A DNA stretch of 58,120 nt from a virus (IMGVR_UViG_3300027969_000117:1-58120), one strand, 5' to 3'. Shown: positions 1 through 17,157, counted from the first letter of the stretch. Program-made: numbers and translations. The notes: a model not told the origin generated them from the letters alone.

Positions 1-2
1 GG

Positions 3-116
3 CTTGCTTCCTGCCCCGTGAAGTATGAAGTTGACGATCTTCAAGGGTTTGACGGCGTCAGCGTAGCATTTTATCCACCAACAGAGGACGAAGAAGAGGA
101 GGCTGAAGATGAGTGA
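3..116 (+). CDS. partial hypothetical protein, acidic C-terminus (5' end outside window)
   Basis: open frame from window edge reading ...YPPTEDEEEEAEDE then TGA at 114-116. Confidence 0.5.
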   Translation, partial: LASCPVKYEVDDLQGFDGVSVAFYPPTEDEEEEAEDE

Positions 117-222
117 TGTTATGACGTGGACCGTACTGTCAATGGCCAAGCTGGTCAAGCCCGTGGCTCTGCCTAGCAAGGTTAGTGCTACTATGTCGGG
201 AGGCAAAGTAGTCAAGACCTAG
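109..222 (+). CDS. small hypothetical protein (37 aa)
   Basis: ATG at 109 preceded by GAGGAGG; TAG at 220-222; not in ORF track. Confidence 0.35.
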   Translation: MSDVMTWTVLSMAKLVKPVALPSKVSATMSGGKVVKT

Positions 223-314
223 ACCGTTGTTTTCATACAACAGAGGAATAACCCGCCGGTTGTGCGGGTTTCCCATTTGTGCTATAATACACACATAGAC
301 AACAAAAGGAACTC

Positions 315-464
315 ATGTACGCAATCGTTAACACTACAACCAAAGCTATTACATTTTACAATAATTTTGCCGCCGCTTCCGAAGCGTGTCGCGCTTACAA
401 TGTGCTTCCGGGTCATAACGTATACGTTATTAACTTTGCCGTACCGGAAATCGAACAATTATAA
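315..464 (+). CDS. early hypothetical protein (49 aa, MYAIVNTTTK...)
   Basis: promoter 260-288, SD AAGGA, ATG 315, TAA 462-464; not in ORF track. Confidence 0.7.
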   Translation: MYAIVNTTTKAITFYNNFAAASEACRAYNVLPGHNVYVINFAVPEIEQL

Positions 465-539
465 AATACGTAATAACCCGCCGCAAGCGCGGGTCTTTGT
501 TTTATGTTATAATACACACTTGTTTTAAAAGGAATCAAA

Positions 540-782
540 ATGGGAATTTACGCAAGTACAGTTAACGCATTTGCAGAATCTGCCGCTCGTGCTAAAGTTT
601 ACACTATGCAAAATCGTCTGCAGAGCTACGGACAAACTGCACAGCAGTTAAATGTAAGCACAGCAAAGTTTCGCAGAGATATCGAAGCTAAAAAAGTAAA
701 GTTTATTGCAAAATTAGAAAAAGAACGTGTTGTAAAATTACAACAAGAACTCGCTAGTCTGCAAGCAAAGCATACACAATAA
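540..782 (+). CDS. early hypothetical basic, helical protein
   Basis: own promoter and AAGGA SD; 80 aa ORF. Confidence 0.75.
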   Translation: MGIYASTVNAFAESAARAKVYTMQNRLQSYGQTAQQLNVSTAKFRRDIEAKKVKFIAKLEKERVVKLQQELASLQAKHTQ

Positions 783-860
783 CACTACAGCGCACAGGGT
801 CTTTACTTGACATCTGTGCGTTTTGGAGTTATAATACACACATAGCAACAAAGGAAACAA

Positions 861-1085
861 ATGAAAAACACAATTAAACGCATTAACAAAGCATTTAGCA
901 AACTGTACGCAATGGGAGACAGCGGACTAGATTATTTGGACAAACACTATGCAGTAGATGCGGCTTTAATACAACATTTTTACGACGAGACACTTGACAC
1001 GCTAACTAAAGCACAGTTAAGCGAGCTAGCGGAGCAACTAGAGGAAGTTGCTAGCGATGCGGAATTTGACTTAGAGACAATTTGA
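861..1085 (+). CDS. early hypothetical protein with acidic C-terminal half
   Basis: promoter 807-835, AAGGA SD; no Pro; no TC/CC dinucleotides. Confidence 0.8.
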   Translation: MKNTIKRINKAFSKLYAMGDSGLDYLDKHYAVDAALIQHFYDETLDTLTKAQLSELAEQLEEVASDAEFDLETI

Positions 1086-1131
1086 AGTTATAATAAACAC
1101 TTAAACAAACAACGCAATAGGAGCGAAAACT

Positions 1132-1512
1132 ATGCAAGCAACTACATTTAATGTTAGCGACAAGCTGACACTAGCAAGTACAGACACAGACGAAGACAGC
1201 GTTAGTACAACATACAACTGCAACGTAGAAGTACAACTTGCGGGCGACAGCATATGGGACTGCGAGCTAGAGGCAGTTACAATTACAAGCATACACATTA
1301 GTGAGACAGACTGGGGCGATGGCGACACTAGCATACATATTGCAGTTTGCTATAGTGTAGACGGCTTTGACGATGGCGAAGCACTAGAGGGAAGCTGGCG
1401 TATATACACAGACAGCGGTTTTGAAGCGGCTGTTAGCGAGCTACTAGGCACAGACGTTACATTTACAGAGCAGGGAATGCAAGACGACGGCTACGCGAGC
1501 ATGGAACTGTAA
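1132..1512 (+). CDS. early highly acidic protein (candidate DNA mimic / anti-defence)
   Basis: promoter 1066-1094, SD AGGAGCGAA; many D/E, only one K and one R; no Pro; function is inference. Confidence 0.75.
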   Translation: MQATTFNVSDKLTLASTDTDEDSVSTTYNCNVEVQLAGDSIWDCELEAVTITSIHISETDWGDGDTSIHIAVCYSVDGFDDGEALEGSWRIYTDSGFEAAVSELLGTDVTFTEQGMQDDGYASMEL

Positions 1513-1593
1513 TAGTTGAGTAAAGTGGAAGGGCTTTGGTTGACACTAGAGCCCTTTTGCGTTATAATACACTTACACTAACAAGGAGCACCT

Positions 1594-1773
1594 ATGCTAA
1601 CAACTCAGGAAAAAATCGAGCGTTTACAAATGGCAATCGCTTTGCTACAGGACGCAGACGCAGGCATACAAACTGCCTTAGGGGACACCGAAGCCTGCTA
1701 CGAAATTCACTGTGCTATAGAAAGTCTAATAGACGATGTACAAGACGCAATTAACGCTAAGGAGCAGGCATGA
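1594..1773 (+). CDS. early hypothetical protein (59 aa, MLTTQEKIERLQ...)
   Basis: promoter 1540-1568, SD AAGGAGC, ATGA overlap with next gene; not in ORF track. Confidence 0.75.
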   Translation: MLTTQEKIERLQMAIALLQDADAGIQTALGDTEACYEIHCAIESLIDDVQDAINAKEQA

Positions 1774-2018
1774 TTACCCCAGACACCCTCAAAGAGCTTA
1801 TTTCCTATCATGCCCCTACGCTGACCAAGTTGGCTAGGGAAAGCGGCTACAAGGGCCCTGCGTTTAGCTCGTGTAAGTTCCTGGGCATTACAAACGGGGG
1901 ACAGTTCTGCTACATGGCAGTCTTCTTAGTAGAGGGCGGCACAGACAGCACCAAGTTGTTCTTAACCCACACAGGCAGTAGGGTTAACGTAGACTACCAC
2001 TTGACAGAAGTCTTCTAA
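1770..2018 (+). CDS. early hypothetical protein
   Basis: SD AAGGAGC, coupled ATGA start. Confidence 0.75.
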   Translation: MITPDTLKELISYHAPTLTKLARESGYKGPAFSSCKFLGITNGGQFCYMAVFLVEGGTDSTKLFLTHTGSRVNVDYHLTEVF

Positions 2019-2055
2019 GACGTTATAATACATATATCGCAACAAGGAGCACACT

Positions 2056-2325
2056 ATGTCAGCAGTCAACATCGGCGGTATTACTAAAGTTTACTCGGGC
2101 AAGGCAGGCACCTGTATGTGCGGCTGTGCCGGCAAGTACAGTTACACGTCTCACGGCGCTGTCAACGACAATCCGGGCTATGATGTAAGCGACAGCGTGA
2201 ACGAGCGCTCGGTCAAGATCATAGCAGGCAAAGTGTTGCGTAATCCCAACACTGATCACAGTGACGCAGGTTACGCAGTACTTGAGCAAAATGGTCGGGT
2301 ATTGGTTGTGTTTCTTAAAGACTGA
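2056..2325 (+). CDS. early hypothetical protein with CxCGCxG motif
   Basis: own promoter and SD; YSGKAGTCMCGCAGKY motif. Confidence 0.75.
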   Translation: MSAVNIGGITKVYSGKAGTCMCGCAGKYSYTSHGAVNDNPGYDVSDSVNERSVKIIAGKVLRNPNTDHSDAGYAVLEQNGRVLVVFLKD

Positions 2326-2360
2326 TGTTATAATACATATATCGCAACAAGGAGCAGACA

Positions 2361-2606
2361 ATGAAAGTTAAAGATCTCATCGAGCAGTTAGGCTTCCAGG
2401 ACCCAGAAGCTGAAGTTCACTTTAGCTACAACTATGGCGATCACTGGCGCTCGCAGGTAGCCCCAAAGGTCAGTCAAGTGTTTGAGGGTGTTGTAGAGTT
2501 TAGCGAGTACCACCGCATGGACAAGCTCGTAGACGAAGAAGACACTTACGACGAAGATACTGGCGACTACAAAGCAGACGTTCGCCGTGTTGTTGTTATT
2601 GACTAA
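2361..2606 (+). CDS. early hypothetical protein (MKVKDLIEQL... type)
   Basis: own promoter and SD; N-terminus resembles that of 5719..5943. Confidence 0.78.
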   Translation: MKVKDLIEQLGFQDPEAEVHFSYNYGDHWRSQVAPKVSQVFEGVVEFSEYHRMDKLVDEEDTYDEDTGDYKADVRRVVVID

Positions 2607-2617
2607 AGGAGAAAACT

Positions 2618-2827
2618 ATGTACGCAACGGTAGAAGGTCAGCAAATCAAAGTCGGCGACTATGTCTGCTTCAAGTCAGACGTAGAGCAATGTGGCAAGGT
2701 CGTGGCAATCAAGAAGAGCTACATGGGCACGGCACTCACGCTGGAGAATGAGAGTGGCTTCTCTGGGGGCTACATTGGCGGGCAGACCCGCACAGTTGAA
2801 GAAGCTAGCGACTGCTGGGTTGAATAA
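2618..2827 (+). CDS. early small beta-barrel/SH3-like hypothetical protein
   Basis: AAGGAG SD; IKVGDYV...GKVVAI pattern. Confidence 0.7.
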   Translation: MYATVEGQQIKVGDYVCFKSDVEQCGKVVAIKKSYMGTALTLENESGFSGGYIGGQTRTVEEASDCWVE

Positions 2828-2893
2828 CCCTTCGGTTGACAGGGTTTCCAAAAGACGTTATAATTAAGACTTACACACACTGGAGCACACAAA

Positions 2894-3349
2894 ATGGGTA
2901 CACGAAGCACTATCGCGCTAGAGTTTGCAGACGGCACAGTAGAACAAGTCTACTGTCATTGGGACGGTTACTTGTCGCACAACGGCCATATCCTCGCTAA
3001 ACATTACAGCGATCCGTTCAAATTGCGCGACCTTATTGACTTGGGCGATGTTAGCTCGCTCCGTCCTGAAGTGGGTTCCGGTCATCCCTTTAGTCAGTTT
3101 GACACTACAATGACTACAGAGCAATTTGATGCGCTCTACGGCAATATGTGTACATTCTACGGACGTGACCGTAAAGAGACAGGCACGGGTGCTAAGAAGT
3201 TTGTTGACTTCCAGGACTACTTAGCTCGTCATCAGTATGAGGAATACGAGTATATCCTGCGCAAAGACGGCAACTGGTATGTCAAACAGCACAGCGCAGA
3301 ATACGAGCTGTTGGCGCCAGCATTGGCCAAAGAGCTAGAAACAGCGTGA
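2894..3349 (+). CDS. conserved phage hypothetical protein (MGTRS...YCHWDGY type)
   Basis: motif recognised from large-phage early regions; promoter 2836-2864. Confidence 0.8.
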   Translation: MGTRSTIALEFADGTVEQVYCHWDGYLSHNGHILAKHYSDPFKLRDLIDLGDVSSLRPEVGSGHPFSQFDTTMTTEQFDALYGNMCTFYGRDRKETGTGAKKFVDFQDYLARHQYEEYEYILRKDGNWYVKQHSAEYELLAPALAKELETA

Positions 3350-3402
3350 CAGGGTTCAACAGCAAACGGGCTTCGGCCCTTGACAAACTCAAAGGACAAG
3401 GT

Positions 3403-3618
3403 ATGAAGACAGCAATGGTAACCACTATCCTGCGTCAAGAGATTCAAGTGCCCGATGACTGGGAGCGTGAGGATGTATTGGACTTCTTAGGCGAGTTCCA
3501 ATCGTTCCGTACAGCGTTCCAGGGTGTATCAAACGAAGACCAAACAGCCCGCATCGTTGACTTGTGCGTTGTGGAAGAAGAGATCACAGAGTTAGGCGAT
3601 GTTGCCTACGATAATTAA
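3403..3618 (+). CDS. early hypothetical acidic protein
   Basis: ATG 3403 after AAGGACAAGG (alternative GTG start at 3346). Confidence 0.6.
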   Translation: MKTAMVTTILRQEIQVPDDWEREDVLDFLGEFQSFRTAFQGVSNEDQTARIVDLCVVEEEITELGDVAYDN

Positions 3619-3627
3619 GGAGTTGAT

Positions 3628-3807
3628 ATGAGCGGTATTAAAGATTTGGCTTATGACATTGAGCAACTGTACATCGAAGGACACAGTGCCAAAATGATTT
3701 CGATCATGCTGGACTGCCCAATCGAGCAGGTGTTGGGCTTCTTGGAAGACATTGGTGTGGCAGATGCGCCACAAGAGGAGGTCTATAGTCCATATTACGG
3801 TGCTTGA
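3628..3807 (+). CDS. small hypothetical protein, possible HTH (59 aa, MSGIKDLAYDIEQL...)
   Basis: AAGGAG SD, ATG 3628, TGA 3805-3807; not in ORF track. Confidence 0.65.
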   Translation: MSGIKDLAYDIEQLYIEGHSAKMISIMLDCPIEQVLGFLEDIGVADAPQEEVYSPYYGA

Positions 3808-3908
3808 TTTCGGTTGACAGCCAATCCAAATGGTTGTATAATAGAGTTATGGTTAGGACAGTTCTTAACCATGTTAGTTAACAGACATTCACACACAAGG
3901 AGTTTTAT

Positions 3909-4322
3909 ATGTCTTCATTTTCACATGCTGGTGTTTCTAAACTGGACGGCGAATTCAAAGTTCGCTTCTGTAACGATGCTCTTCGTCAGAAGGTGCTGAT
4001 CAAGAACGGTCACACTGATATTGATATCCTTGAGCTCAAGCACCCTATGACCAAGGTCGAGGCTGTTGAGTTCCTGTTGTCAATTGACTTTGACAATGGC
4101 AATAAGGCTGTCCGTGCCGCACTTGAGCAGGCTTTGGACAAGCGTTCTGCTCCTGAGGCTGCTAATCGCGACAAGCCTAAGAAGGAAGCTAAGAAGCCCA
4201 AGGCTCCTGCTAAGCCTAAGGCCAAGGGTCCAACGATGGATGCTATCAAGGCCAAGGTTGCAGCCAAGACTGCTGTTACCAAAGCTGACGTTACGGCACA
4301 GCTGGAAGACGCTCCGTTCTAA
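3909..4322 (+). CDS. hypothetical protein with Lys/Ala/Pro-rich histone-like tail
   Basis: promoter 3814-3842, AAGGAG SD; KPKKEAKKPKAPAKPKAK segment. Confidence 0.8.
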   Translation: MSSFSHAGVSKLDGEFKVRFCNDALRQKVLIKNGHTDIDILELKHPMTKVEAVEFLLSIDFDNGNKAVRAALEQALDKRSAPEAANRDKPKKEAKKPKAPAKPKAKGPTMDAIKAKVAAKTAVTKADVTAQLEDAPF

Positions 4323-4341
4323 CCCAAAGAGGCCCGAGTGC

Positions 4342-4387
4342 CTCTTTGTAGAGCTCATTAAATAACGTGAGCTCTACAAAGAGCTTT
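4342..4387 (+). terminator. 16 bp perfect hairpin plus T tract, with TAAATA in the loop
   Basis: CTCTTTGTAGAGCTCA / TGAGCTCTACAAAGAG followed by CTTTT. Confidence 0.65.
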
Positions 4388-4397
4388 TAACCAAGGA

Positions 4398-4595
4398 GTG
4401 AATATGAAAGAACTATTAGTCATTGCCGCTGTGATCCTAGTGATCATCTTCGGACCCTTTGCTTCCATTTGGGCGCTGAATGTATTCGGTGACACCTTGT
4501 GGCCGGGCAAGCAGATACCCTACACATTCGAAACTTGGGCGGCCGCTATCATCATGGCAGGCGTCTTCAAGTCTACCATCACTAAGAAGGATTGA
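4398..4595 (+). CDS. small two-TM membrane protein
   Basis: two hydrophobic segments; AAGGAG SD (start 4398 or 4404). Confidence 0.7.
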   Translation: MNMKELLVIAAVILVIIFGPFASIWALNVFGDTLWPGKQIPYTFETWAAAIIMAGVFKSTITKKD

Positions 4596-4598
4596 TCC

Positions 4599-4817
4599 AT
4601 GAGCCGATTACAACTACACGGGCGTCCGTGGGTAGTGTTTGACGCAAAGAACAAGGATCACCGTAAATGGTTTGCGGACTTTAACCAAACGTCCATGTGG
4701 GGTCATTGCCCAGTTCGATTCGTGGTCAACGAGGATCACGGTGACTTGATCACCCAAATCCAACGTGAATTGATTGCCTATTACGTGAATCGAGAGTTTG
4801 GACAAAAAAGTTCTTGA
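4599..4817 (+). CDS. conserved phage hypothetical protein
   Basis: AAGGA SD; FDxxNKDHR...WGHCPVRF pattern. Confidence 0.72.
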   Translation: MSRLQLHGRPWVVFDAKNKDHRKWFADFNQTSMWGHCPVRFVVNEDHGDLITQIQRELIAYYVNREFGQKSS

Positions 4818-4885
4818 CGAGACCGTAATAAGGCTGTAACATAGTATTAACTGTTTAATTACAGTCTTATATAGGAAACTAAAAA

Positions 4886-5158
4886 ATGTTAAACAAAATC
4901 AATTCAGGAACTAAGACACACAAGTTGTTCACAGCCCTACAGTCAGGCGAGCGTTTGACTGCTAGCCAAGCAGAAAAGCGTTTTGGTGTTAAGAACATCA
5001 GCGCCGAAGTAAGCCGCATCCGCCAAGCAGGCTATGCCGTTTACGCCAACAAGCGTACAGCTGGCAACAACGTTGAAGTCACTGAGTATCAGATTGGTAC
5101 ACCAAGCCGCACACTCGTTGCCGCTGGTTACAAGGCTATGGCACTTGGCCTAGTCTAA
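4886..5158 (+). CDS. putative winged helix-turn-helix DNA-binding protein
   Basis: LTASQAEKRFGVKNISAEVSRIRQAGY HTH-like pattern; own promoter 4814-4842. Confidence 0.7.
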   Translation: MLNKINSGTKTHKLFTALQSGERLTASQAEKRFGVKNISAEVSRIRQAGYAVYANKRTAGNNVEVTEYQIGTPSRTLVAAGYKAMALGLV

Positions 5159-5242
5159 GAGTTCGCTCCGAAAGTCCTAGGATTCGCTCCCCTAGGCACC
5201 CTTAGCCCTCGCCTACTGTGAAGTACGCGGGGGCATCTTTTT
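5159..5242 (+). ncRNA. candidate structured 3'-UTR/small RNA ending in an intrinsic terminator
   Basis: TTCGCTCC twice (5162, 5183), the second in the loop of a CCTAGG/CCTAGG stem; GCCCTCGC/GCGGGGGC hairpin then ATCTTTTT. Confidence 0.5.
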
Positions 5243-5300
5243 GGTTGACAACTGGTAAAACCGGTGCTATAATTAACATATAGACAGCAAGGAGTAGAAG

Positions 5301-5441
5301 ATGGAATATACCGTAATTTACCCTAATGGCACTGAGCAGAAGTTCTACATCAGAGCAGTGGCAGAGATGTACGCTATGACCAACAAGGGTCGTGTTGTAG
5401 GAAAGCCACAGTTAGTTTTGGTTGACAAGAAGGCCGCTTGA
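5301..5441 (+). CDS. early hypothetical protein (46 aa, MEYTVIYPNG...)
   Basis: promoter 5245-5273, AAGGAG SD; not in ORF track. Confidence 0.7.
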   Translation: MEYTVIYPNGTEQKFYIRAVAEMYAMTNKGRVVGKPQLVLVDKKAA

Positions 5442-5456
5442 GAGTATAATACACAT

Positions 5457-5660
5457 ATGACAAAACGATATATCTACCTAGAGACTACAGAGTGGCCCGA
5501 AGGCACCGCAACCAACAACGTCTATGTCTTCGATAAGAAGCCCGAAGGACGGACTGCGACCTGTGTGGCGTATGTGCCACAAGGACATACTAAGGTACAG
5601 ATCCTACGCACACCGTTGAAACTCGACCTAAAAGGCAGGACATTCAAAGAGCTTGGTTGA
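5457..5660 (+). CDS. early hypothetical protein, probably leaderless
   Basis: ATG 6 nt after TATAAT 5445-5450; stop is the TGA inside the next TTGACA. Confidence 0.75.
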   Translation: MTKRYIYLETTEWPEGTATNNVYVFDKKPEGRTATCVAYVPQGHTKVQILRTPLKLDLKGRTFKELG

Positions 5661-5718
5661 CAAAGTGGTAAAACCGCGTTATAATACACACATGAAACAA
5701 ACAAAGAAGGAGCGAGAT

Positions 5719-5943
5719 ATGACAGCGATTACAGTTAAAGAGATGATAGAGGCATTGAGCCGTTTGCCCGGAGACGCAGAGTTGGTAGTGACCGAAAGCG
5801 GTTATTACTGCTATGGCGAATTCGCAACGATCATGTTGCCAGAAGCCTACACCATAGAAGGTGTTGGTATGGACGGAGCCGTGGCTGACGAAAATGTTGG
5901 TCGGGTGGTATACCGCATCGGTCACAGTCACCAAAGCTATTAA
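5719..5943 (+). CDS. early hypothetical protein (TVKEMIEAL... type)
   Basis: SD AAGGAGCGAG before ATG 5719 (alternative leaderless ATG at 5692). Confidence 0.72.
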   Translation: MTAITVKEMIEALSRLPGDAELVVTESGYYCYGEFATIMLPEAYTIEGVGMDGAVADENVGRVVYRIGHSHQSY

Positions 5944-5953
5944 GGAGCAAAGC

Positions 5954-6337
5954 ATGCAACTGACAATCCGTAAAACCGTTGAAGTAACCCCATGTACCTA
6001 CAAAGAGATGTGCCGAGCTATCAGCCACGGTAGCTGGGATCCAGGTTGGGATCCTGTAGTCATGCGTCGAATGAAGATGAGCAAGGCCCGGCTCTATGCC
6101 CAACTGTTGGCTGACGAAGTGGGTGCCGCCCACTTCAACAAGACGATGAAGAAGACCTTGAAGAGCGCCGAGAACACCTACTCCGTAGAGAATCCTGAGT
6201 ACTTCCGCTATACTTGGATGTGGGCCCTGCCCAAGAAGCATTGGTTCGCCCTGTGGGCAGATGCCTACGCAGAAGCCGAAGAGAACTACTGGGAAGAGTC
6301 CGATCGCAAGAACTTCCCAGAGGACTTTGAGGAATAA
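5954..6337 (+). CDS. early hypothetical Trp-rich protein
   Basis: SD AAGGAGC before ATG 5954. Confidence 0.7.
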   Translation: MQLTIRKTVEVTPCTYKEMCRAISHGSWDPGWDPVVMRRMKMSKARLYAQLLADEVGAAHFNKTMKKTLKSAENTYSVENPEYFRYTWMWALPKKHWFALWADAYAEAEENYWEESDRKNFPEDFEE

Positions 6338-6460
6338 AATAATGGTTGCCAATGTGTCAACTCCACCACTAGACCCTGCAACTCGCCTGGGTACTTCGTG
6401 GGGTTGACACTGAGGCTTTTTGGTTATATAATACACACATACACTAACAAGGAGCAAACT

Positions 6461-6700
6461 ATGAAACAGAACGAAATCGTAGACTACAAGGGCATTGGCA
6501 CCATCCAGATGACTCTTGATGAGGACGGCAAGAAAGTCTACCTCTATACTCACAATTTCTTCAAGAGGACCAATGATGAAGACACCATCAAGGGTGCCAA
6601 AGAGATGCTGGATTGGGAAGATGGCCAAGCCCGTGAGGTCCGTAATGCTATTAGCATCCTTAGTTCTAGAGGCTACAAAATCTACAGAGAAATCGCTTGA
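6461..6700 (+). CDS. early hypothetical protein
   Basis: promoter 6404-6432, SD AAGGAGC. Confidence 0.72.
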   Translation: MKQNEIVDYKGIGTIQMTLDEDGKKVYLYTHNFFKRTNDEDTIKGAKEMLDWEDGQAREVRNAISILSSRGYKIYREIA

Positions 6701-6752
6701 CAATCTGGTAAAAAGGCCGTATAATACACACTTACACTAACAAGGAGCTGAT

Positions 6753-6971
6753 ATGAAAATTCCAAAACCAGAATCAACTTACAACATCGTAGACAACCCA
6801 ATCCCAAAGAGTGGCATGTGGGCCACCTACAGCCTGGAAGAACTACAGACCCAGGTAGAGAATCTGTCAGGTGCAGAGCGAGCTCTAGCATGGCACTATG
6901 TCATGCTCACACTTAATGCCTGCAACAAGACAGTAGAGGACGAGATCTTGAGCAGAGAAGTATTTGCATAA
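6753..6971 (+). CDS. early hypothetical protein
   Basis: promoter 6697-6725, SD AAGGAGC. Confidence 0.75.
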   Translation: MKIPKPESTYNIVDNPIPKSGMWATYSLEELQTQVENLSGAERALAWHYVMLTLNACNKTVEDEILSREVFA

Positions 6972-7033
6972 TTAGGTTGACCTTTTGGTAAAACCCTGCT
7001 ATAATACACACATACACTAGATAGGAGCGAACA

Positions 7034-7408
7034 ATGGAAGACTTCAAAAGCTGGGAAGAGATGTCCGTAGTCGAGCAGTATGCCTGCCAGTTCTGGGATA
7101 TGTACAAGGATGCCTACGGTGTTCGCCCACGCGGTATTGACACTTCTGCTTGGACCGAAGCTGACTTCGAAGCCGAGTTCGTTAGCCTAAGCAAGGTCAT
7201 TGAGCAGGAAGAGATCGCTCGTAAGGCCTCCGAAGAAAAAGCTGAACACGACTTCGAAATGCGTGTCCTGGGCCTACTACAAACAGGTGCCAAGGATCGT
7301 GCTATGGCGCTCCGTTGGATCCACGAAGCAGAAGGTTCGAATGGTGACGACGAGTTCCTGTGCTATTTGGTAGGCTTGCCCTACGGTTATTTTAGAAAGG
7401 CAGCTTAA
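7034..7408 (+). CDS. conserved phage hypothetical protein (DMYKDAYGVRPR type)
   Basis: promoter 6977-7005, SD AGGAGCGAAC; recognisable motif. Confidence 0.8.
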   Translation: MEDFKSWEEMSVVEQYACQFWDMYKDAYGVRPRGIDTSAWTEADFEAEFVSLSKVIEQEEIARKASEEKAEHDFEMRVLGLLQTGAKDRAMALRWIHEAEGSNGDDEFLCYLVGLPYGYFRKAA

Positions 7409-7599
7409 TGATACATGGTAGCCCATACGATCGCGGCGCGGCCGATAGCTGGTACCGTCGTCCTAAACATCCACACAAGGGCGGCGTTGGTGGAGACTCA
7501 GGCCCCCGCATTGAAGACCTAACAGCAGAGGAGATCGCTCTGTACAACGAGGGCTACGACTGGAACGAACAGTTCGGCGACAAGAAGAACTGGGATTAA
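7408..7599 (+). CDS. conserved phage hypothetical protein (HGSPYDRGAADSWY type)
   Basis: TAATG coupling to upstream gene; recognisable motif. Confidence 0.78.
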   Translation: MIHGSPYDRGAADSWYRRPKHPHKGGVGGDSGPRIEDLTAEEIALYNEGYDWNEQFGDKKNWD

Positions 7600-7664
7600 C
7601 CCGCCGGTTGACAGGGTTACCAAATCCTGTTATAATACATACATCGCAACAAGGAGCACACACA

Positions 7665-7751
7665 ATGGAACAAGCATACATTAACCTAGCAATCATGTTG
7701 AGCCCACTGGCCATCATGCTGGTGGCAATGATCATAGCAGGAGAGTGGTAA
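7665..7751 (+). CDS. 28 aa hydrophobic peptide
   Basis: promoter 7608-7636, SD AAGGAGC; MEQAYINLAIMLSPLAIMLVAMIIAGEW. Confidence 0.6.
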   Translation: MEQAYINLAIMLSPLAIMLVAMIIAGEW

Positions 7752-7870
7752 TGGTACAGTTTATCTTTTGGGTGCTGGTCCTGTGGTTCCTTATCCACTA
7801 CGGCATCCTAAGTGCCTTCTTGTTGTTCTGTTCTAATGTCTTTTTGTTCCTAGCAGGAGTTGTAGCATGA
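7751..7870 (+). CDS. 39 aa hydrophobic membrane peptide
   Basis: TAATG and ATGA coupling on both sides; MVQFIFWVLVLWFL... Confidence 0.6.
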   Translation: MVQFIFWVLVLWFLIHYGILSAFLLFCSNVFLFLAGVVA

Positions 7871-8112
7871 TTGAATTTACCCTAGAAGGTCTTACCCAGC
7901 GTCAGCAGGTCCTAGCAGACATCATGTGGTCGTTGGAAGAATACGATCAAGTCGAACGATTCATTGCTACCTTGCCCGATCGCGAAGCCTGTGAGTGCCA
8001 GACGATCATTGAGATGATGAAGATGGCCGTTGTTGAACAATGCTATGACGGTGTCCAGAAGCTGGATGAAGCCCAGAAGGTGTTGCGAAAATACAACACC
8101 AAAAGAGGTTGA
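7867..8112 (+). CDS. early hypothetical protein
   Basis: AGGAG SD, coupled start. Confidence 0.72.
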   Translation: MIEFTLEGLTQRQQVLADIMWSLEEYDQVERFIATLPDREACECQTIIEMMKMAVVEQCYDGVQKLDEAQKVLRKYNTKRG

Positions 8113-8168
8113 CAGTCTGGTAAAACCACGCTATAATACATACTTAAACAACACACAGGAGCGAACCT

Positions 8169-8513
8169 ATGCAAGTTACTACACAAGAGCAAGTCAACGC
8201 AATCGTCAAAGAAGCACAAGCCGCCGCATACAAGGCCGCAATGGAGTTCTTCTATGACAAGCTGAACGGGCGCGATCAGTTCGCATGTGGCTTTGCCTGG
8301 ACCAACATCTACAAGGTCAAAGGCAACACCAAGCTGGGCAAGATGCTCAAAGCGGCGGGCGTCAAGCAGGACTACACCAAAGCGTTCAGCATCTGGAACC
8401 CATCGGGCATGCCAGTTCAGAACGTAGACACACTGGAGGCAGGTGCCCAAGCGGCCGCAGAGGTGTTTCGCAAGCATGGCTTCGAAGCCTACGCAGGCTC
8501 AAGACTCGATTGA
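8169..8513 (+). CDS. conserved phage hypothetical protein (CGFAW...SRLD type)
   Basis: promoter 8109-8137, SD AGGAGCGAAC; recognisable motif. Confidence 0.8.
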   Translation: MQVTTQEQVNAIVKEAQAAAYKAAMEFFYDKLNGRDQFACGFAWTNIYKVKGNTKLGKMLKAAGVKQDYTKAFSIWNPSGMPVQNVDTLEAGAQAAAEVFRKHGFEAYAGSRLD

Positions 8514-8574
8514 CACCAGCGCCGCAAGGCGCTATAATTACACACTTCAACAAACGTTTTATAAGGACACACAA

Positions 8575-9447
8575 ATGGCTACAGCAAAGAGCAAGACAGC
8601 ATCCAAGGGCACAACCGTTCTGGAATTTGATACCGATAAGATCAAGGCACGTGAAGCAGAAGTTGCTCGCGAGTCTGACGAGCAGATCTATGAGCGTTTG
8701 GCTGAACGCTTTGATATCCTCCATGAGATGACCATTGCGGTTAAGAAGGGCGATGTACGTGCTATGATTGTATCGGGCCCTCCAGGTGTGGGCAAGAGCC
8801 ACGGTGTTGAGCAGGTACTGAGCAAGGACGATCTGTTTGATACGCTGGGCAACCGTAAGCCACGCTATGAGATTGTCAAGGGTGCCATGTCTAGCATTGG
8901 ACTCTACGCCAAGTTGTACGAATACTCCGACGCTAAGAATGTTATCGTGTTCGACGACTGCGACTCAATCCTTATGGAAGACTTGAGCTTGAACATTCTC
9001 AAGGGTGCGCTTGACTCTAGCCCAAAGCGAGTTATCCAGTGGAACACGGACTCACGTTTGCTACGCTCAGAAGGCATTCCAGACAAGTTTGAGTTCAAGG
9101 GTGCGGCTATTTTTATTACCAACATCAAGTTTGAACACGTTAAGAGCAAGCGCCTCCGTGATCACTTGGATGCTTTGGAAAGCCGTTGCCACTACATTGA
9201 TCTGCAAATGGATACAGAGCGTGAGAAGATCTTGCGTATCAAGCAGGTGGTTAAGGAAGCAGACATGCTGGCCCGCTATGAGTTTACAGACGCAGTCAAG
9301 GACGAGCTTGTGGCATTCATTGACACTAACAAGAGCAAGTTGCGTGAGCTGAGTCTGCGTATGGTACTGAAGATTGCGGACTTGCGTAAGAGCTTTCCTA
9401 ACTCTTGGGTGGCTATGGCACGTACTACCTGTATGAAGCGTGTATGA
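8575..9447 (+). CDS. AAA+ family ATPase
   Basis: Walker A GPPGVGKS, Walker B VIVFDDCD, sensor FITN, ALESR arginine finger; start after AAGGA. Confidence 0.88.
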   Translation: MATAKSKTASKGTTVLEFDTDKIKAREAEVARESDEQIYERLAERFDILHEMTIAVKKGDVRAMIVSGPPGVGKSHGVEQVLSKDDLFDTLGNRKPRYEIVKGAMSSIGLYAKLYEYSDAKNVIVFDDCDSILMEDLSLNILKGALDSSPKRVIQWNTDSRLLRSEGIPDKFEFKGAAIFITNIKFEHVKSKRLRDHLDALESRCHYIDLQMDTEREKILRIKQVVKEADMLARYEFTDAVKDELVAFIDTNKSKLRELSLRMVLKIADLRKSFPNSWVAMARTTCMKRV

Positions 9448-9686
9448 TTACCAAGGTAGTACTCCTAACAGCACTGGGCCTAGTGCTCAGTGCACTGGAC
9501 ATAGAAGCCTGGGCCAGCTGGAGTATCTGTGGATGCTTCCTGGCTTGGGGCTGGCACATGCGAGCAGAAGGCTATGATGATGCTACTGAAACAGCACAGG
9601 CCGTATGGCAGGCAGCACAGCGAGCAGTGGAAGAAGTAAGAGCACACAACAACAAGCAACAAGGACAGGACACAGGCAATGACTAA
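9444..9686 (+). CDS. membrane protein
   Basis: ATGA overlap; two hydrophobic N-terminal segments. Confidence 0.6.
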   Translation: MITKVVLLTALGLVLSALDIEAWASWSICGCFLAWGWHMRAEGYDDATETAQAVWQAAQRAVEEVRAHNNKQQGQDTGND

Positions 9687-9963
9687 GCACATCAACTCTA
9701 CATGTACCTACATTGGGCACACAGGTACACAGGCTACATGCTGTGAGCGTACTGTACTAGGCTCTAGCTACTGTGCTACACACTACCCTATGATCTACGC
9801 TAGCGGCACAAAGCTAGGGCGTAGACTCAAGGATGCGGCTCGGGCAGAAGCCATACGCCAGCTGGTGTCAGACTTCAACGATGCGGTTGCTCAGTTAGAA
9901 GCAGAAGGCTACGATGTCTACGGTGATAGTGAGCGGGTAGATGGTGAGATGGACTTTACCTGA
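9679..9963 (+). CDS. hypothetical protein with C-C-C-H zinc-binding-like motif
   Basis: CTYIG...C...SYCATH. Confidence 0.65.
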   Translation: MTKHINSTCTYIGHTGTQATCCERTVLGSSYCATHYPMIYASGTKLGRRLKDAARAEAIRQLVSDFNDAVAQLEAEGYDVYGDSERVDGEMDFT

Positions 9964-10237
9964 CCCGGTGGTGGGAGGCATGGTGGGGTGGCCAGGTGTC
10001 TTCTACAAGTGCTGTTGCTTTTACGCAACAGCGCATGCCAAAAGTTTTCCAAAACCACCCCCTGTTAGAGTAAAAACCGGTAGATCTAGATCTCGAACCT
10101 CTACTTATTTTGCGCGGCAGATTTGCACTGCATGCAAGTCGGTCTGGGCTAAATCGGGATCTAAAAAATTTTTACGCAGTAAAAATTAGGTCTAGCCATA
10201 GACCTCGGGCTGTAGGCTCACTATAAATAAACCTACA

Positions 10238-10453
10238 ATGCGCCCCTTACAATACTATGTACTCACGCTGGATCCCAACATGCCCCATGTTATACACTGG
10301 ATTCATGCTAATAGTGTCAAATTTGAAGCACACTTAAATCGCACTCGTTTTTGGGTACCGCCAGGTACTCCACTTCATACAGAGTTTCTACTACGCTTTG
10401 CTCACTGCTGTCCCCTAGTTGATCCTACAGTAGATTTAGCAACAGGCTTATAA
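10238..10453 (+). CDS. hypothetical protein
   Basis: TATAAATA 8 nt upstream; 71 aa. Confidence 0.7.
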   Translation: MRPLQYYVLTLDPNMPHVIHWIHANSVKFEAHLNRTRFWVPPGTPLHTEFLLRFAHCCPLVDPTVDLATGL

Positions 10454-10464
10454 ATACTCTTACT

Positions 10465-10587
10465 ATGATGATCTTCAGACCACCTAATCCATGCGACCCA
10501 GTGCCAGAACGCTGGCAAATTCCCGGTCCTCCACAAAAATCACCTCCCCCGGATCCCATACCCGATCCAACTCCCACTCCAGAATAA
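10465..10587 (+). CDS. 40 aa proline-rich peptide
   Basis: TATAAATA 8 nt upstream; MMIFRPPNPCDPVP...PDPTPTPE; not in ORF track. Confidence 0.5.
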   Translation: MMIFRPPNPCDPVPERWQIPGPPQKSPPPDPIPDPTPTPE

Positions 10588-10615
10588 TCTACAGTTCATA
10601 ATGTAAATATACGTT

Positions 10616-10873
10616 ATGCGAATGCTTTGGGACCGTTATCCTGAAATGCCATATACGGCAGTTGTACGCTGGCCCATGGTCGAGTATCGTGGACAGTGGG
10701 ACTTTATAGCTTCAGTTGACTGTGTAGAGACATGGTTAGAGAGGCGCATAGGACCACACTGGGTACGCTGGACTTGGAACATGTGGAGTCTGCATCAAAA
10801 TGATCTCTGCGGTGTGGGCTTTAAACATGAGCAGGATGTGACACTATTCTTACTACGCTGGGATAGTATGTAG
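10616..10873 (+). CDS. hypothetical Trp-rich protein ending in F-x4-D-x2-LFLLRW
   Basis: TAAATA-N6-ATG; C-terminal pattern frequent in large phages. Confidence 0.7.
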   Translation: MRMLWDRYPEMPYTAVVRWPMVEYRGQWDFIASVDCVETWLERRIGPHWVRWTWNMWSLHQNDLCGVGFKHEQDVTLFLLRWDSM

Positions 10874-10981
10874 AGTATTAAGTTGGTGGTTAACCGAGTG
10901 TAAAAAATCTCGCGTACCGGTCGCGCTTCGCGCTCTTTCTGGCTCTTGGTTCCGAAACGGTCCTTGGTAAATACTATCACT

Positions 10982-11094
10982 ATGACACTACCAGTATCAA
11001 ACGACATTTCATTTAATGCTATCAACGTAGAGCTTGGCAGAACCGCCACAGCTCAGCTCAGCATCAACGATTCAGAACTTAGAACTCTGTTTGG
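10982..11094 (+). repeat. 113 nt direct repeat, copy 1
   Basis: 7 mismatches versus 12440-12552. Confidence 0.92.
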
Positions 11095-12025
11095 CATCGC
11101 CAGTGGTGCTATTGACATCAACACAGGGCACGGTAAATCAAACCGTGTTGTTCGAAGTGTTACTTTTACTTCAGATCGGACCGGCGACACCGTGGATCTC
11201 ATCGGGCTGAGTGGGTATGTAGCTGGCAAAACTGATTTTGTAATCACCGTGAATCCCGGAGTCTATCTCTATGGTGCCAATGTTACCGGCTACGGCCTGG
11301 TGATCAATGGCAATGGTATTGCAGCAGGAGATACAGTTAGACTAATCAATCAGGGCTATATTATGGGCTTTGGGGGAGATGGTGGCACCGGTGCCAGCTA
11401 TAGTTCACAAATAGCTGGCACCAAAGGTAATGATGGCCGCACGGCCCTTGACGTCTACTGTAACATAACCATTGATAACACCTATGCTGGAGCCTACATA
11501 GGTGGTGGAGGGGGCGGTGGTGGAGGGGGCGGATGTAGTCCTAGCGGTAGTAAATTTGCGACCAGTGGAGGGGGCGGTGGTGGAGGAGCTGGTGGCGGCC
11601 GTGGCGGAGGCTGGAGTGGAGGTAATGACGGAGGTGCTGGCGGAGGTCCAGGTCAGATAGGCGCTCAGGGAGTTGGCGGTGAAATTAGTCCCGGAAATGG
11701 CGCAGTTGCCGATGGTGGTGGAGCAGGAGGTGGCGGCGGAAACTTTATCGGAAGTGGTGGAGGAGGCGGGAGACAATTCCCAGGCAGTGGTGGTACAAAC
11801 GCGGTATCGGGTGGCAGCGCCAATAACTCAGGAACAACTCCGACTGATTACTCTAGCGCCGGTGGGAGTGGCGGTGGTTGGGGAGCTGCAGGAGGTAACG
11901 GCGGGACTGGCGGCGGCGCTATTCCAGGAGCAGGTGGTGCGGGCGGCAAGGCAGTCAATCTAAATGGCTATACTGTAACCTGGGTGTCGGGCGATACCTC
12001 TAGAATTTATGGAGCCGTATCATGA
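10982..12025 (+). CDS. glycine-rich tail-tip adhesin (T-even gp38-like)
   Basis: IMGFGGDGG, YIGGGGGGGG, GGGWGAAG, GGAGGKAV motifs and ...RIYGAVS end resembling gp38; start follows TAAATA. Confidence 0.78.
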   Translation: MTLPVSNDISFNAINVELGRTATAQLSINDSELRTLFGIASGAIDINTGHGKSNRVVRSVTFTSDRTGDTVDLIGLSGYVAGKTDFVITVNPGVYLYGANVTGYGLVINGNGIAAGDTVRLINQGYIMGFGGDGGTGASYSSQIAGTKGNDGRTALDVYCNITIDNTYAGAYIGGGGGGGGGGGCSPSGSKFATSGGGGGGGAGGGRGGGWSGGNDGGAGGGPGQIGAQGVGGEISPGNGAVADGGGAGGGGGNFIGSGGGGGRQFPGSGGTNAVSGGSANNSGTTPTDYSSAGGSGGGWGAAGGNGGTGGGAIPGAGGAGGKAVNLNGYTVTWVSGDTSRIYGAVS

Positions 12026-12435
12026 TATTAACAGAAGCGTTCCTAATTGCCGCAGATGCCTGTGCCGAAGGCATGGACATAGCAAGACAAAATAACTATA
12101 TTGGTAAAGACTATGACTGGGTCATGCGAAATCTACTGTCATTGGGCAATAGAGATTTTGCCGGATGGATGTTAGATCAAAAACGAACAGAAACTTATGT
12201 AAGACATAACGGGAGTATAATAACGATGGGAAATTTTCAAGTATTTGATCCCTTAACGGGTCAGCACACAGAATATCCAGACGAGGACAGCGCAAGATTG
12301 GCGATGATAGAAATATCAAAAAAAATACTAGACAAATATAAAATTACTCTAGTAAGATCTATAGTTAATGAGAATGGCGACACCGCTTGGACCAGCGCAC
12401 AGCTGACTAGTCCGCTGACAGTGAGTATCGTCTAG
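12022..12435 (+). CDS. hypothetical protein (adhesin-associated)
   Basis: GGAG SD, ATGA overlap, lies between the two adhesin-like genes. Confidence 0.7.
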   Translation: MILTEAFLIAADACAEGMDIARQNNYIGKDYDWVMRNLLSLGNRDFAGWMLDQKRTETYVRHNGSIITMGNFQVFDPLTGQHTEYPDEDSARLAMIEISKKILDKYKITLVRSIVNENGDTAWTSAQLTSPLTVSIV

Positions 12436-12439
12436 AAAT

Positions 12440-12552
12440 ATGACACTACCAGTATCAAACAACATTTCATTTAACGGTATCAACGTAGAGCTTGGCAGAA
12501 CTGCCACAGCTCAGCTCAGCATCAACGATTCAGAGATTAGAACGCTGTTTGG
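12440..12552 (+). repeat. 113 nt direct repeat, copy 2
   Basis: see copy 1. Confidence 0.92.
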
Positions 12553-13471
12553 ACAGCCCACTGGCCCTGTTGATCTCGGATCGGGACTGGGCAAATCATA
12601 CTCGTTGACTGTTGACATAACCCTAGTCGGGGGTGGAGGTGGTGGCGCAGGTGGGGGATTTGGTGAAGGTTCTGGCGGAGGGGGCGGAGGTGGCGCCCTA
12701 CGATATTTTTCAAGTGTTGTTGCCCCTGGAGCGTCAACTTACGACATCACAGTGGGGCTAGGGGGTACAGGTAGCAGTGGAGGTGACGCTGGCGGAGATC
12801 CAACAATATTTGACGGTGGTATTTCATCTATAGTAAAGGCCGGAGTATTATCGTACTCAGCCGCTGGAGGCGGTGGGGGTGGATCTGTTACTGGCAATGT
12901 CCCAGGCGCTGGAAGAAATGGCGGGTCTGGAGGCGGAGGGGCAGCGCAAGGAAACAATACCTCAGCAGGCGGCACGGCCAGCACGGGCGGCAACAACGGA
13001 GCAGCCGGTGTATTTTCATCTTTTTCCGGAGAATCAGTTGGAGTAGGTGGGGGTGGAGGAGGAGCAGGTGGATCCGGTAGTGTAGGAAGTACCAATGCCA
13101 TTTCGGGTTATGGCCAAGGCGGCGTCGGAGGCCCGGGCACATCGGACATTATAACTGGCACCGTTAGAGGTGGGGGAGGTTCTGCTGGCAGCTTTGGCGT
13201 AGCCACTAACTCACTGGGCGGTTCAGGTGGCGGGGGTAATGGAGATCTAAACGGAACCGATGCCGGAACTGCAGGAGCGGACGGATATGGCGGTGGCGGT
13301 GGCGGCCATTACACAGACGGGGGTTCGGGCTATGCGGGTGGGTCAGGAATTGTATTAATTAGATATCCAATGAGCGCAGGATCTAATAGAGCAACAGGTG
13401 GAACAAAAACCAACGACGGCACGTATTACATACATACATTTACGGCATCGGGCACATTTGTAATAAATTAA
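12440..13471 (+). CDS. glycine-rich domain protein (second adhesin-like paralog)
   Basis: same N-terminus as 10982; LVGGGGGG...GGSGIVLIRY...IHTFTASGTF Gly-rich domain. Confidence 0.78.
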   Translation: MTLPVSNNISFNGINVELGRTATAQLSINDSEIRTLFGQPTGPVDLGSGLGKSYSLTVDITLVGGGGGGAGGGFGEGSGGGGGGGALRYFSSVVAPGASTYDITVGLGGTGSSGGDAGGDPTIFDGGISSIVKAGVLSYSAAGGGGGGSVTGNVPGAGRNGGSGGGGAAQGNNTSAGGTASTGGNNGAAGVFSSFSGESVGVGGGGGGAGGSGSVGSTNAISGYGQGGVGGPGTSDIITGTVRGGGGSAGSFGVATNSLGGSGGGGNGDLNGTDAGTAGADGYGGGGGGHYTDGGSGYAGGSGIVLIRYPMSAGSNRATGGTKTNDGTYYIHTFTASGTFVIN

Positions 13472-13818
13472 AAATGTTGCGCCAGTACCATACAGCTTAA
13501 CCAAGCCCACATGGTATTGAATGCTACCAGGGTAGGTAGGAGTTTCTTATTGCTGGCCCAGATAAGTGTTAGGCTTGTTAGTAGTGTTAGCCAATAAAAC
13601 TGCCAAATGTTGACGCCAAATATCAATCCCGGAATAATAATCAGTGCTTTAGCAGTCCAACTGGCGGCTTCTACTAGATTATAAAAGTGTGACCAGTATT
13701 CCCGTGTAAACCACATGGCGTAGCAGTCACGAATCTTATCCCAACCTGTTTTGTGGTATGTAATGGCTACCAGGACCAGGGCGGCTGAAGTGGCCCAAAC
13801 TATCTGTTCTAATGTCAT
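13468..13818 (-). CDS. multi-pass membrane protein
   Basis: about four hydrophobic segments; TAAATA-N5-ATG supports a start at 13818. Confidence 0.72.
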   Translation of the reverse strand: MTLEQIVWATSAALVLVAITYHKTGWDKIRDCYAMWFTREYWSHFYNLVEAASWTAKALIIIPGLIFGVNIWQFYWLTLLTSLTLIWASNKKLLPTLVAFNTMWAWLSCMVLAQHF

Positions 13819-13929
13819 ACAGGTATTTAGGCTGGGCAGTTGCGGAGTGCCAAAAATTAGGTTTTCAGTTAAGGTAACTTGACTAAATACGTTACCAAAC
13901 CATATCACACGTCAAGGGAATACACTACT

Positions 13930-16900: not shown

Positions 16901-17157
16901 GTCAAGTATTAGAACTTACACCAGTGTCATTTACATTCATTGACACTAAGCTGTACGGAACACATACCGAAATTGGATTCATTGCCCAAGACGTCCAAAG
17001 AATATTCCCAGAGGTTGTTGGCAGCGGTGCTGACGGTGTCCTATCACTAGATTATTCTAAATTAGTAAGTCCGTTAGCCAAGGCTATTCAAGAACTAAAT
17101 GCCATTGTTGAAGCACAGGGTCGACGCATTACTGAGCTAGAATCCAAGATACAGTAA
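13930..17157 (+). CDS. collagen-like tail fibre with C-terminal intramolecular chaperone (peptidase S74)
   Basis: long G-X-Y (GATGAT/GPQ) tract; [10 protein letters not shown]...IGFIAQDV...LDYSKL...AIQEL; GTG start after AAGGGA. Confidence 0.88.
15100..16380 (+). repeat. collagen-like GAT/GST/GPx codon repeats
   Basis: degenerate 9-nt units such as GGTGCTACT and GGAGCAACA; boundaries approximate. Confidence 0.9.

Follow-up and report, generated by a model that had tools for sequence, protein, structure and literature searches.

The stretch of DNA analysed (58,120 nt, hereafter referred to as the window) is a virus contig encoding a large terminase with 58% identity to those of PA5oct-like Pseudomonas giant phages, together with a sheath-like protein and fibre proteins with collagen repeats and an S74 chaperone domain. 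A near-identity DNA search of a phage collection with positions 4000-8000 identified no near relative, and a tRNA/tmRNA search of the window found none. The + strand early region corresponds to bases 1-9 kb. G+C content is 44-51% in this region and the fibre genes (1-17000) and 35-44% in the - strand structural region (18000-58120), and GC skew changes sign near 18 kb. Three large proteins are encoded: one of 1092 aa with collagen repeats and an S74 chaperone domain (13879-17157), a second of 1278 aa with a sheath domain only in its C-terminal part (42583-46419), and a third, exceeding 1499 aa and also bearing an S74 domain, which runs past the contig end (53377-58119).

Positions 5159-5242 lie within the early region, immediately past the stop codon of a winged-helix gene (hereafter referred to as the HTH gene). 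The features of this locus, and of the leaders with which it may interact, are as follows:

807-8538, + strand: 15 sigma-70 promoters in an array, all close to the consensus (TTGACA-17-TATAAT, perfect in 13 cases and near-perfect in two), with homologous AC-rich leaders (promoter scan)
1120-1127, + strand: candidate target Shine-Dalgarno (SD) region GGAGCGAA of gene 1132-1512, 8-nt complement (sequence match)
4814-4842, + strand: promoter-like site of the HTH/RNA unit, TTGACG-17-TAACAT, 9/12 (promoter scan)
4850-4865, + strand: hairpin ACTGT-TTAATT-ACAGT at the 5' end of the predicted HTH transcript (sequence, relatives)
4886-5158, + strand: winged-helix gene, 90 aa, Pfam HTH_39 (E 6.3e-7), phrog_4973 (Pfam and PHROGs matches)
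5161-5169, + strand: unpaired motif 1, GUUCGCUCC (DNA GTTCGCTCC), right after the HTH stop (sequence and fold)
5176-5196, + strand: hairpin CCUAGG (5176-5181)/CCUAGG (5191-5196) (MFE and centroid folds)
5205-5242, + strand: intrinsic terminator, composed of a GC-rich hairpin (5205-5234) and a T-run (5238-5242) (fold)
5709-5715, + strand: candidate target SD region GGAGCGA of gene 5719-5943, 7-nt complement (sequence match)
7024-7032, + strand: candidate target SD region GGAGCGAAC of gene 7034-7408, 9-nt complement (sequence match)
8158-8166, + strand: candidate target SD region GGAGCGAAC of gene 8169-8513, 9-nt complement (sequence match)

Promoter-like sites detected by the scan numbered 30, for an expected 15.0 +/- 3.4. 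The early leaders reproduce a single AC-rich cassette ending in (A)AGGAGC(A/G), a few bases and ATG, and the SD is GGAGC in 10 of the 15 units of the array. Among the + strand genes of at least 40 aa in the 1-10.5 kb interval, 20 have a GGAG SD; this is GGAGC in 12 cases, four of which are GGAGCGA. The SD of the HTH gene is AGGAAA, not GGAGC, and the leader of this gene is devoid of GGAGC in 19 of 20 lineages. At the position of the HTH promoter, relatives have TTGACC-17 and an imperfect -10 box. The stem of the 5' hairpin co-varies in relatives (ACTGC/GCAGT, ACTGA/TCAGT, GCTGT/ACAGC, with the arms swapped in L098), and this hairpin could serve to stabilise the RNA or as an operator. A protein search of phage records with the HTH sequence yielded only three distant records, uninformative on function, and PHROGs placed the HTH protein and two of the candidate target proteins in families of unknown function only.

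The HTH ORF ends with a TAA codon (5156-5158), and motif 1 is followed by a second motif, AUUCGCUCC (DNA ATTCGCTCC), which constitutes the 9-nt loop (5182-5190) of the CCTAGG hairpin. The two copies form an imperfect tandem unit composed of TTCGCTCC, 0 or 6 nt, and CCTAGG. The last hairpin has 12 predicted pairs (8 + 4 around an internal loop) and is followed by CAUCUUUUU, so that a U-run comes directly after a GC-rich hairpin, as in intrinsic terminators. A simple scan missed this terminator, the loop of which is probably beyond the limits of the scan. The element (hereafter referred to as the module) is thus located between the HTH stop codon and the terminator of the HTH mRNA, which it uses as its own; the next feature downstream is a perfect TTGACA-17-TATAAT promoter at 5245. 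An earlier note on this DNA, based on the sequence alone, had placed the motifs at 5161-5169 and 5182-5190, with the second in the loop of a CCTAGG/CCTAGG stem upstream from a terminator, and had reported their reverse complement GGAGCGAAC at 7024-7032 and 8158-8166, with shorter matches of 8 nt at 1120 and 7 nt at 5709. The sequence and its predicted fold bear out all these statements, and the four leader matches lie 9-12 nt upstream of a start codon. The count of “about nine more” early genes with GGAGC, also given in that note, was roughly right, judging from the 12 GGAGC genes among the 20 described above.

A second hairpin with a GCUCC loop (4303-4321), kept in relatives, was rejected as a further copy, as it corresponds to the coding C-terminus (LEDAPF) of ORF 3909-4322; the LEDAPF codons yield the hairpin-like word GACGCTCCG. 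This ORF encodes a 137-aa early protein with a middle part rich in lysine, alanine and proline (KPKA-type) and adjoins the HTH unit in relatives. Gene 5457-5660, downstream from the locus, starts 6 nt past a perfect -10 box (TATAAT-acacat-ATG; 5422-5459), and its mRNA is therefore probably leaderless. The same layout is found in L001 (promoter at 3393), and in many module-less HTH loci, the gene following HTH begins 5-6 nt past a -10 box.

The window was first considered in isolation. The word TTCGCTCC is present in six copies on the two strands, whereas 0.66 +/- 0.83 are expected, and none of 100 shuffles reached six. This excess is partly due to the early leaders being copies of one cassette and the two copies in the untranslated region (UTR) forming an imperfect tandem unit; because the leaders are paralogous, a single match gives several hits. 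The fold energy of the UTR is unremarkable (z -1.74; 14 of 200 shuffles equally stable). Duplex energies were calculated for positions 5159-5204 (46 nt) against 14 leaders, with 380 46-mer windows and 300 shuffles as controls. The mean energy was equalled or beaten by 13% of the control windows and 8.7% of the shuffles, and the best energy by 4.5% and 2.7%, respectively. On the window alone, predicted pairing is only marginally better than chance and is, by itself, a weak lead.

Relatives of the HTH gene were found in viral contigs (151) and metagenome contigs (260), and 80 loci of each kind were examined. A subset of these loci keeps a non-coding block immediately past the stop codon. The succession of stop codon, module and terminator was the same in all 14 aligned relatives, in which the block UCGCUCC-G-A(A)AG-UCC-stem was almost invariant; UCGCUCC itself was invariant and unpaired in 14/14 sequences, followed by a hairpin and the terminator. 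The third-codon identity of the HTH gene between the window and L003-L043, L014 and L027 (the near-identical L001 being excluded) ranged from 43 to 66%, and such low identity beside a conserved block indicates that the block is under selection of its own. The motif is kept across HTH proteins with identities as low as 58%, for which synonymous sites are near saturation. The unpaired motifs are, then, more constrained than the third-codon positions of the adjacent gene, as expected of the seed of a 3' UTR-derived small RNA (sRNA).

The hairpins surrounding these motifs vary greatly. The AUUCGCUCC loop is carried by different stems in L001/L002, L094, L078, L047, L050/L051 and L150, and in most other relatives UCGCUCC is unpaired and lies 5' of a hairpin with a GGUAGUGU loop, homologous to the window hairpin. 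Loops of the GCUCC type were found on at least eight unrelated stems, including that of the terminator itself in L150. Overall, the module consists of one to four hairpins (three or four in some relatives: L014, L027, L095, L110, L159 and L168) with unrelated, compensating stems and invariant loops. Stem covariation was assessed on 17 distinct GGUAGUGU hairpins, selected by their loop alone, all of which contain GUAGUGU. In this set, 96.1% of the stem cells were paired, versus 66.8% in shuffles; all six pairs had changed on both sides, with 31 compensatory cells, a result matched by none of 500 shuffles. The terminator also co-varies, with double changes in 7 of its 16 predicted pairs. The pair types of the stems include wobble pairs; as these would become A-C mismatches in the complementary strand, they point to a + strand RNA. 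The earlier note had suggested covariation analysis downstream of HTH homologues and had made the conservation of the loops in relatives a test of its proposal: compensatory stems were found in the 17 hairpins, and the TTCGCTCC loops recur, on different stems.

No Rfam family matched the window at gathering score, and permissive scans of the window, L014 and L230 returned noise only. Comparative sequence evidence thus argues that positions 5159-5242 correspond to a real structured + strand RNA element ending in the terminator of the HTH mRNA, and the existence of a modular RNA family, absent from Rfam and widespread in lake viromes, is well supported; its carriers are uncultured myovirus-like giant phages from freshwater. 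HTH loci without the module (e.g. L006, L009, L013, L021, L022, L030 and L035) have a different 3' element, composed of ‘aCTCGCTG’, a co-varying stem with a variable loop, and a terminator, which may be an older or a different form. Extra TAGTGT ‘hairpins’ in the L014 contig were rejected as further copies, as they lie in a repeat-rich region, apparently next to a tRNA gene, and in a coding region. In the same contig, L085 1780-2480 is an ORF-free stretch of ‘aaaaccccgctgta’ units and TATAGTGT repeats, followed by what we take, on reading the sequence, to be a tRNA-like gene with a CAU anticodon. Upstream of a module copy, a stretch of about 120 nt is conserved between L247 (3670-3790) and L203 (3360-3475), with no reading frame longer than 34 aa; it may be another structured RNA.

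The association of the module with the HTH gene is frequent but not obligatory. A pattern scan of viral contigs gave at least 119 stretches, and the 80 loci examined contained 81 matches, 28 of which lay within 250 nt past an HTH gene. A stem of at least five pairs was present in 38 matches, 25 of them following an HTH gene and 13 without such a gene. Among the 43 matches with fewer than five stem pairs, three followed an HTH gene; the remaining 40 lacked both features and appear to be chance occurrences. The module is located downstream of a homologue of window ORF 4599-4817 in L196/L231, and follows other genes in L214/L235 and, as a second copy, in L220. L230 has no HTH ORF; its ORF-less unit of about 120 nt (fold z -4.36) contains a promoter, the 5' hairpin, an unpaired UUGCUCC, a GGUAGUGU hairpin, a hairpin with a UUGCUCC loop and a terminator, so that the RNA is maintained in its own right.

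Contigs identical to parts of window 3800-6800 were identified in two lake metatranscriptome libraries from two studies, one of them spanning 4872-5207, that is, the HTH gene and the module up to the terminator, without a difference. A third library contained the module of a relative, with a further compensated stem. These data are assembled contigs with a depth of about 5, from a type of library that can hold DNA, and the uncovered parts of 3800-6800 are uninformative; they provide a hint that the 4872-5207 region is transcribed. Two RNA-library contigs (X2 and X7, from two studies) both stop at 4323, one base past the stop codon of ORF 3909-4322, and two hairpins (4330-4380) lie just beyond these ends, which could reflect a transcript end or a strain break.

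The motifs were then compared with the early leaders of the module-bearing loci. Thirty such loci yielded 240 unique leaders, each taken from the promoter to the start codon. The three unpaired motifs of the module (GCUCC-type, GGUAGUGU and UGUUAGUG) proved to be the reverse complements of the commonest words in this set:

GGAGC, complement of module motif GCUCC: 173/240 leaders, rank 2 of 1024 5-mers
ACACTA, complement of module motif UAGUGU: 129/240 leaders, rank 2 of 4096 6-mers
CACTAA, complement of module motif UUAGUG: 90/240 leaders, rank 6 of 4096
CACTAACA, complement of module motif UGUUAGUG: 28/240 leaders, rank 27 of 65536 8-mers

The other words of the module served as an internal control: for its 1157 distinct 6-mers, the number of leader complements had a median of 0 and reached about 42 at the 99th percentile. 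Among the 21 6-mers present in at least half the modules, those with the most leader complements were TAGTGT (129), CGCTCC (37) and TCGCTC (34), all in unpaired parts, whereas stem words had 0-8. Along the module, the motifs are arranged as 5'-GCUCC...UAGUGU-3', an order consistent with antiparallel pairing to 5'-ACACUA-A-GGAGC-3'. Complementarity is nevertheless incomplete. The invariant UCGCUCCG of the most frequent module form is complementary to only 5 nt of the majority leader AAGGAGCA, its invariant C and the following G remaining unpaired (GGAGCG is found in just 37/240 leaders), and the invariant G preceding UAGUGU is not complementary (ACACTAC in 1/240 leaders). The anti-leader match put forward in the earlier note therefore stands in a modified form: the motifs complement the consensus early leader, SD included, but the exact 9-mer match is specific to the lineage of the window rather than a property of the family.

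The module and this type of leader tend to occur together. In 36 HTH loci with the module, GGAGC was found in 155 of 245 unique leaders, ACACTA in 123 and both in 101, versus 29, 11 and 0, respectively, of 203 unique leaders in 124 HTH loci without it; GGAGC accounted for 155 of 180 GGAG leaders in the presence of the module and 29 of 87 in its absence. The C after GGAG adds no pairing with the canonical 16S anti-Shine-Dalgarno sequence. These counts, like the seed-leader classes described below, are confounded by shared descent, and the tree of the 90-aa HTH protein is mostly unresolved (16 of 27 inner branches open), such that the frequency of changes in module type cannot be read from it.

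We also considered whether seed and leader vary together. A loop-exposed (A/U)UCGCUCC accompanies GGAGCG-rich leaders in five lineages (GGAGCG:GGAGCA of 4:5 in the window, 9:2 in L051, 7:5 in L078, 2:0 in L150 and 5:0 in L219), and the ratio was 0:17 for the UUGCUCC loci of this first sample. The match in these lineages is that of loop-exposed UUCGCUCC to GGAGCGA leaders, and the exact 9-mer complement of the locus's own loop is present in L047 and L050. By contrast, L014 (1:15) and L192 (1:10) combine a loop-exposed CGCUCC with GGAGCA leaders, and in a second, independent sample the ratios were 11:105 for UCGCUCC-type loci and 7:28 for UUGCUCC loci, so that co-variation failed. The GGAGCG leaders do not mark orthologous target genes, with the exception of one cluster of three members. 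Cognate modules and leaders did cofold slightly better than non-cognate sets (double-centred diagonal of -0.43 kcal/mol versus 0 +/- 0.16, with 0.5% of 5000 permutations as low), in a matrix that is noisy because the modules were cut at unequal lengths (80-170 nt). As far as the sequences can tell, the case for seed-to-leader co-variation is mixed.

Given these patterns, the module is probably an anti-leader regulator that would pair with early mRNA leaders and cover their SD, a reading to which we assign a probability of about one half. The RNA would be a + strand product, forming the 3' end of the HTH mRNA or, in some relatives, lying behind another gene or arising from an ORF-less unit. It would begin with a short unpaired stretch, continue with one to four hairpins and finish with an intrinsic terminator, the stems being free to drift and compensate. 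Its conserved unpaired motifs, (U/C)GCUCC, GGUAGUGU and UGUUAGUG, would act as antisense to the leader boxes ACACUA(AC) and (A)GGAGC. The RNA would pair in trans with the leaders of early mRNAs, contact beginning at a loop and extending over the SD, and the duplex would block ribosome binding or mark the RNA for RNase cleavage. As the exposed loops are complementary to leaders shared by the early genes, the module may switch these genes off together, the early regulon being damped or shut off post-transcriptionally. In the window, where both motifs are of the GCUCC type, the best predicted pairing (7-9 nt) is with the leaders of genes 1132, 5719, 7034 and 8169. A stable RNA, its pairing in vivo, and the direction and timing of its effect are what we infer from these patterns, and repression of the early genes would be the outcome by analogy with known antisense regulators. 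The absence of GGAGC from the leader of the HTH transcript itself, in 19 of 20 lineages, is in keeping with this reading.

The module comes from an early-type promoter, so a delayed shut-off would need an extra assumption, such as higher stability; the 5'-terminal hairpin of the HTH transcript could conceivably allow the RNA to outlast its targets. A broader version of the anti-leader reading, possible but put forward only tentatively, is that of a regulon-wide RNA in which antisense words displayed in loops would co-evolve with tags common to dozens of early mRNAs (the C of GGAGC and the ACACUA box), in a global early-to-middle switch operating in a large clade of freshwater giant phages. The tags would then be mainly docking sites, and the 5' hairpin would let the RNA outlive the early mRNAs.

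The same loops would be accounted for differently if the module bound a protein (a phage protein, possibly HTH, or a host protein), with the invariant loops as recognition hairpins of a sponge, an autoregulatory site or a platform, and the complementarity to leaders being incidental. The presence of identical loops, one to four times, on unrelated stems is typical of protein-titrating RNAs, the invariant bases that do not pair (GG before UAGUGU; C and G flanking GCUCC in the common form) suggest other constraints, and the link with one protein gene is usual (28/81 matches, 25/38 with a stem of at least five pairs). We nonetheless consider a protein-binding role rather unlikely, as it leaves unexplained the complementarity of three motifs, in the right order, to the top leader words, and the restriction of the module to the GGAGC/ACACTA type of leader. 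The module also persists without the HTH gene, and its loops, GGUAGUGU and (U/C)GCUCC, lack GGA, the loop motif by which Csr/Rsm sponges are recognised, and yielded no Rfam match. The constant position of the module, always between a stop codon and an intrinsic terminator and directly before the next early promoter, would suit a cis-acting 3'-end element, with hairpins protecting the upstream mRNA from 3' exonucleases or tuning termination and read-through. At the same place, module-less HTH loci have ‘CTCGCTG’, a variable-loop hairpin and a terminator, so that conservation of the position reaches beyond that of the antisense motifs. Protection, however, calls for stable stems rather than invariant loops, whereas it is the loops that are invariant here and the stems that vary, and L230 has no upstream ORF to protect; a purely cis-acting role is thus distinctly unlikely.

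It is very improbable that the words are operators in DNA, with GGAGCGAA/TTCGCTCC and ACACTA/TAGTGT as double-stranded sites for a DNA-binding protein, such as HTH. A winged-helix protein is indeed encoded by the adjacent gene, the window copies begin 21 bp apart, or about two helical turns, and a duplex site reads alike on both strands, which would give an appearance of complementarity. But compensatory stems, wobble pairs on the + strand and display in loops would be meaningless for duplex DNA, the spacing between motifs varies widely among relatives, and the motifs persist where the HTH gene is absent. Chance, together with local tandem duplication, in which a GCUCC word was doubled beside a terminator and happened to match a repeated leader cassette, would be in keeping with the weak statistics of the window alone (pairing controls; fold z -1.74), the imperfect tandem unit holding the two copies, and the paralogy of the leaders, through which one match becomes several hits. 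This explanation is hardly credible in light of the conservation of the motif down to 58% HTH identity with synonymous sites near saturation, the covariation of the hairpins and the family-wide complementarity.

Base-pairing RNAs that occlude ribosome-binding sites are already known as a kind of mechanism. Like the c4 antisense RNA of P1/P7 (immI), the module is a small structured RNA encoded by a phage and co-transcribed with protein genes, and in both cases two exposed segments would pair with two leader sites, one of them over the ribosome-binding site. However, c4, which is cut out of a precursor, has one target operon (icd-ant) in a temperate phage, whereas the RNA described here uses the terminator of an mRNA, may have dozens of targets with a shared leader, and belongs to a phage that is probably virulent and giant; the C4 family of Rfam did not match the window at gathering score and was not listed in the permissive scans of the window, L014 and L230. 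The position downstream of a stop codon and ahead of an intrinsic terminator, the U-rich 3' end, and a seed better conserved than its surroundings are features shared with CpxQ, DapZ, SroC and MicL. Those are host sRNAs, usually Hfq-dependent and with a few unrelated targets each, whereas the putative targets here are the paralogous leaders of the phage itself; the similarity of a relative to Rfam DapZ (E 8.1, 13.6 bits for a gathering score of 56) is noise. RsaE/RoxS and RNAIII also have a short pyrimidine-rich motif repeated in loops or unpaired stretches and directed against the SDs of many mRNAs, but this motif is UCCC/CCCC, against GGGA/GGGG, in Firmicutes, and GCUCC here, where a second loop motif, GGUAGUGU, would target a box upstream of the SD; a hit to Rfam RsaC (16 bits for a gathering score of 100) is likewise noise.

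Whatever the mechanism, the module adds a structured RNA family outside Rfam, with concrete candidate seed/target pairs, from a phage and a host neither of which is cultured. Temporal control in virulent phages is usually attributed to proteins, such as sigma and anti-sigma factors, RNA polymerase modifiers and nucleases. The outcome proposed here resembles that of T4 RegB, with early mRNAs inactivated post-transcriptionally via their GGAG SD, but RegB is a protein nuclease, whereas the agent here would be an RNA. In the parts of the literature that were searched, we found no description of an RNA aimed at the shared leader of the whole early regulon of a virulent phage. If correct, the anti-leader reading would explain two odd conserved features of the leaders, the C after GGAG and the ACACUA box, and would imply that RNA regulators acting in trans are able to organise a lytic programme; a single RNA addressing the whole early regulon through its shared leader would be a different, and very economical, solution.
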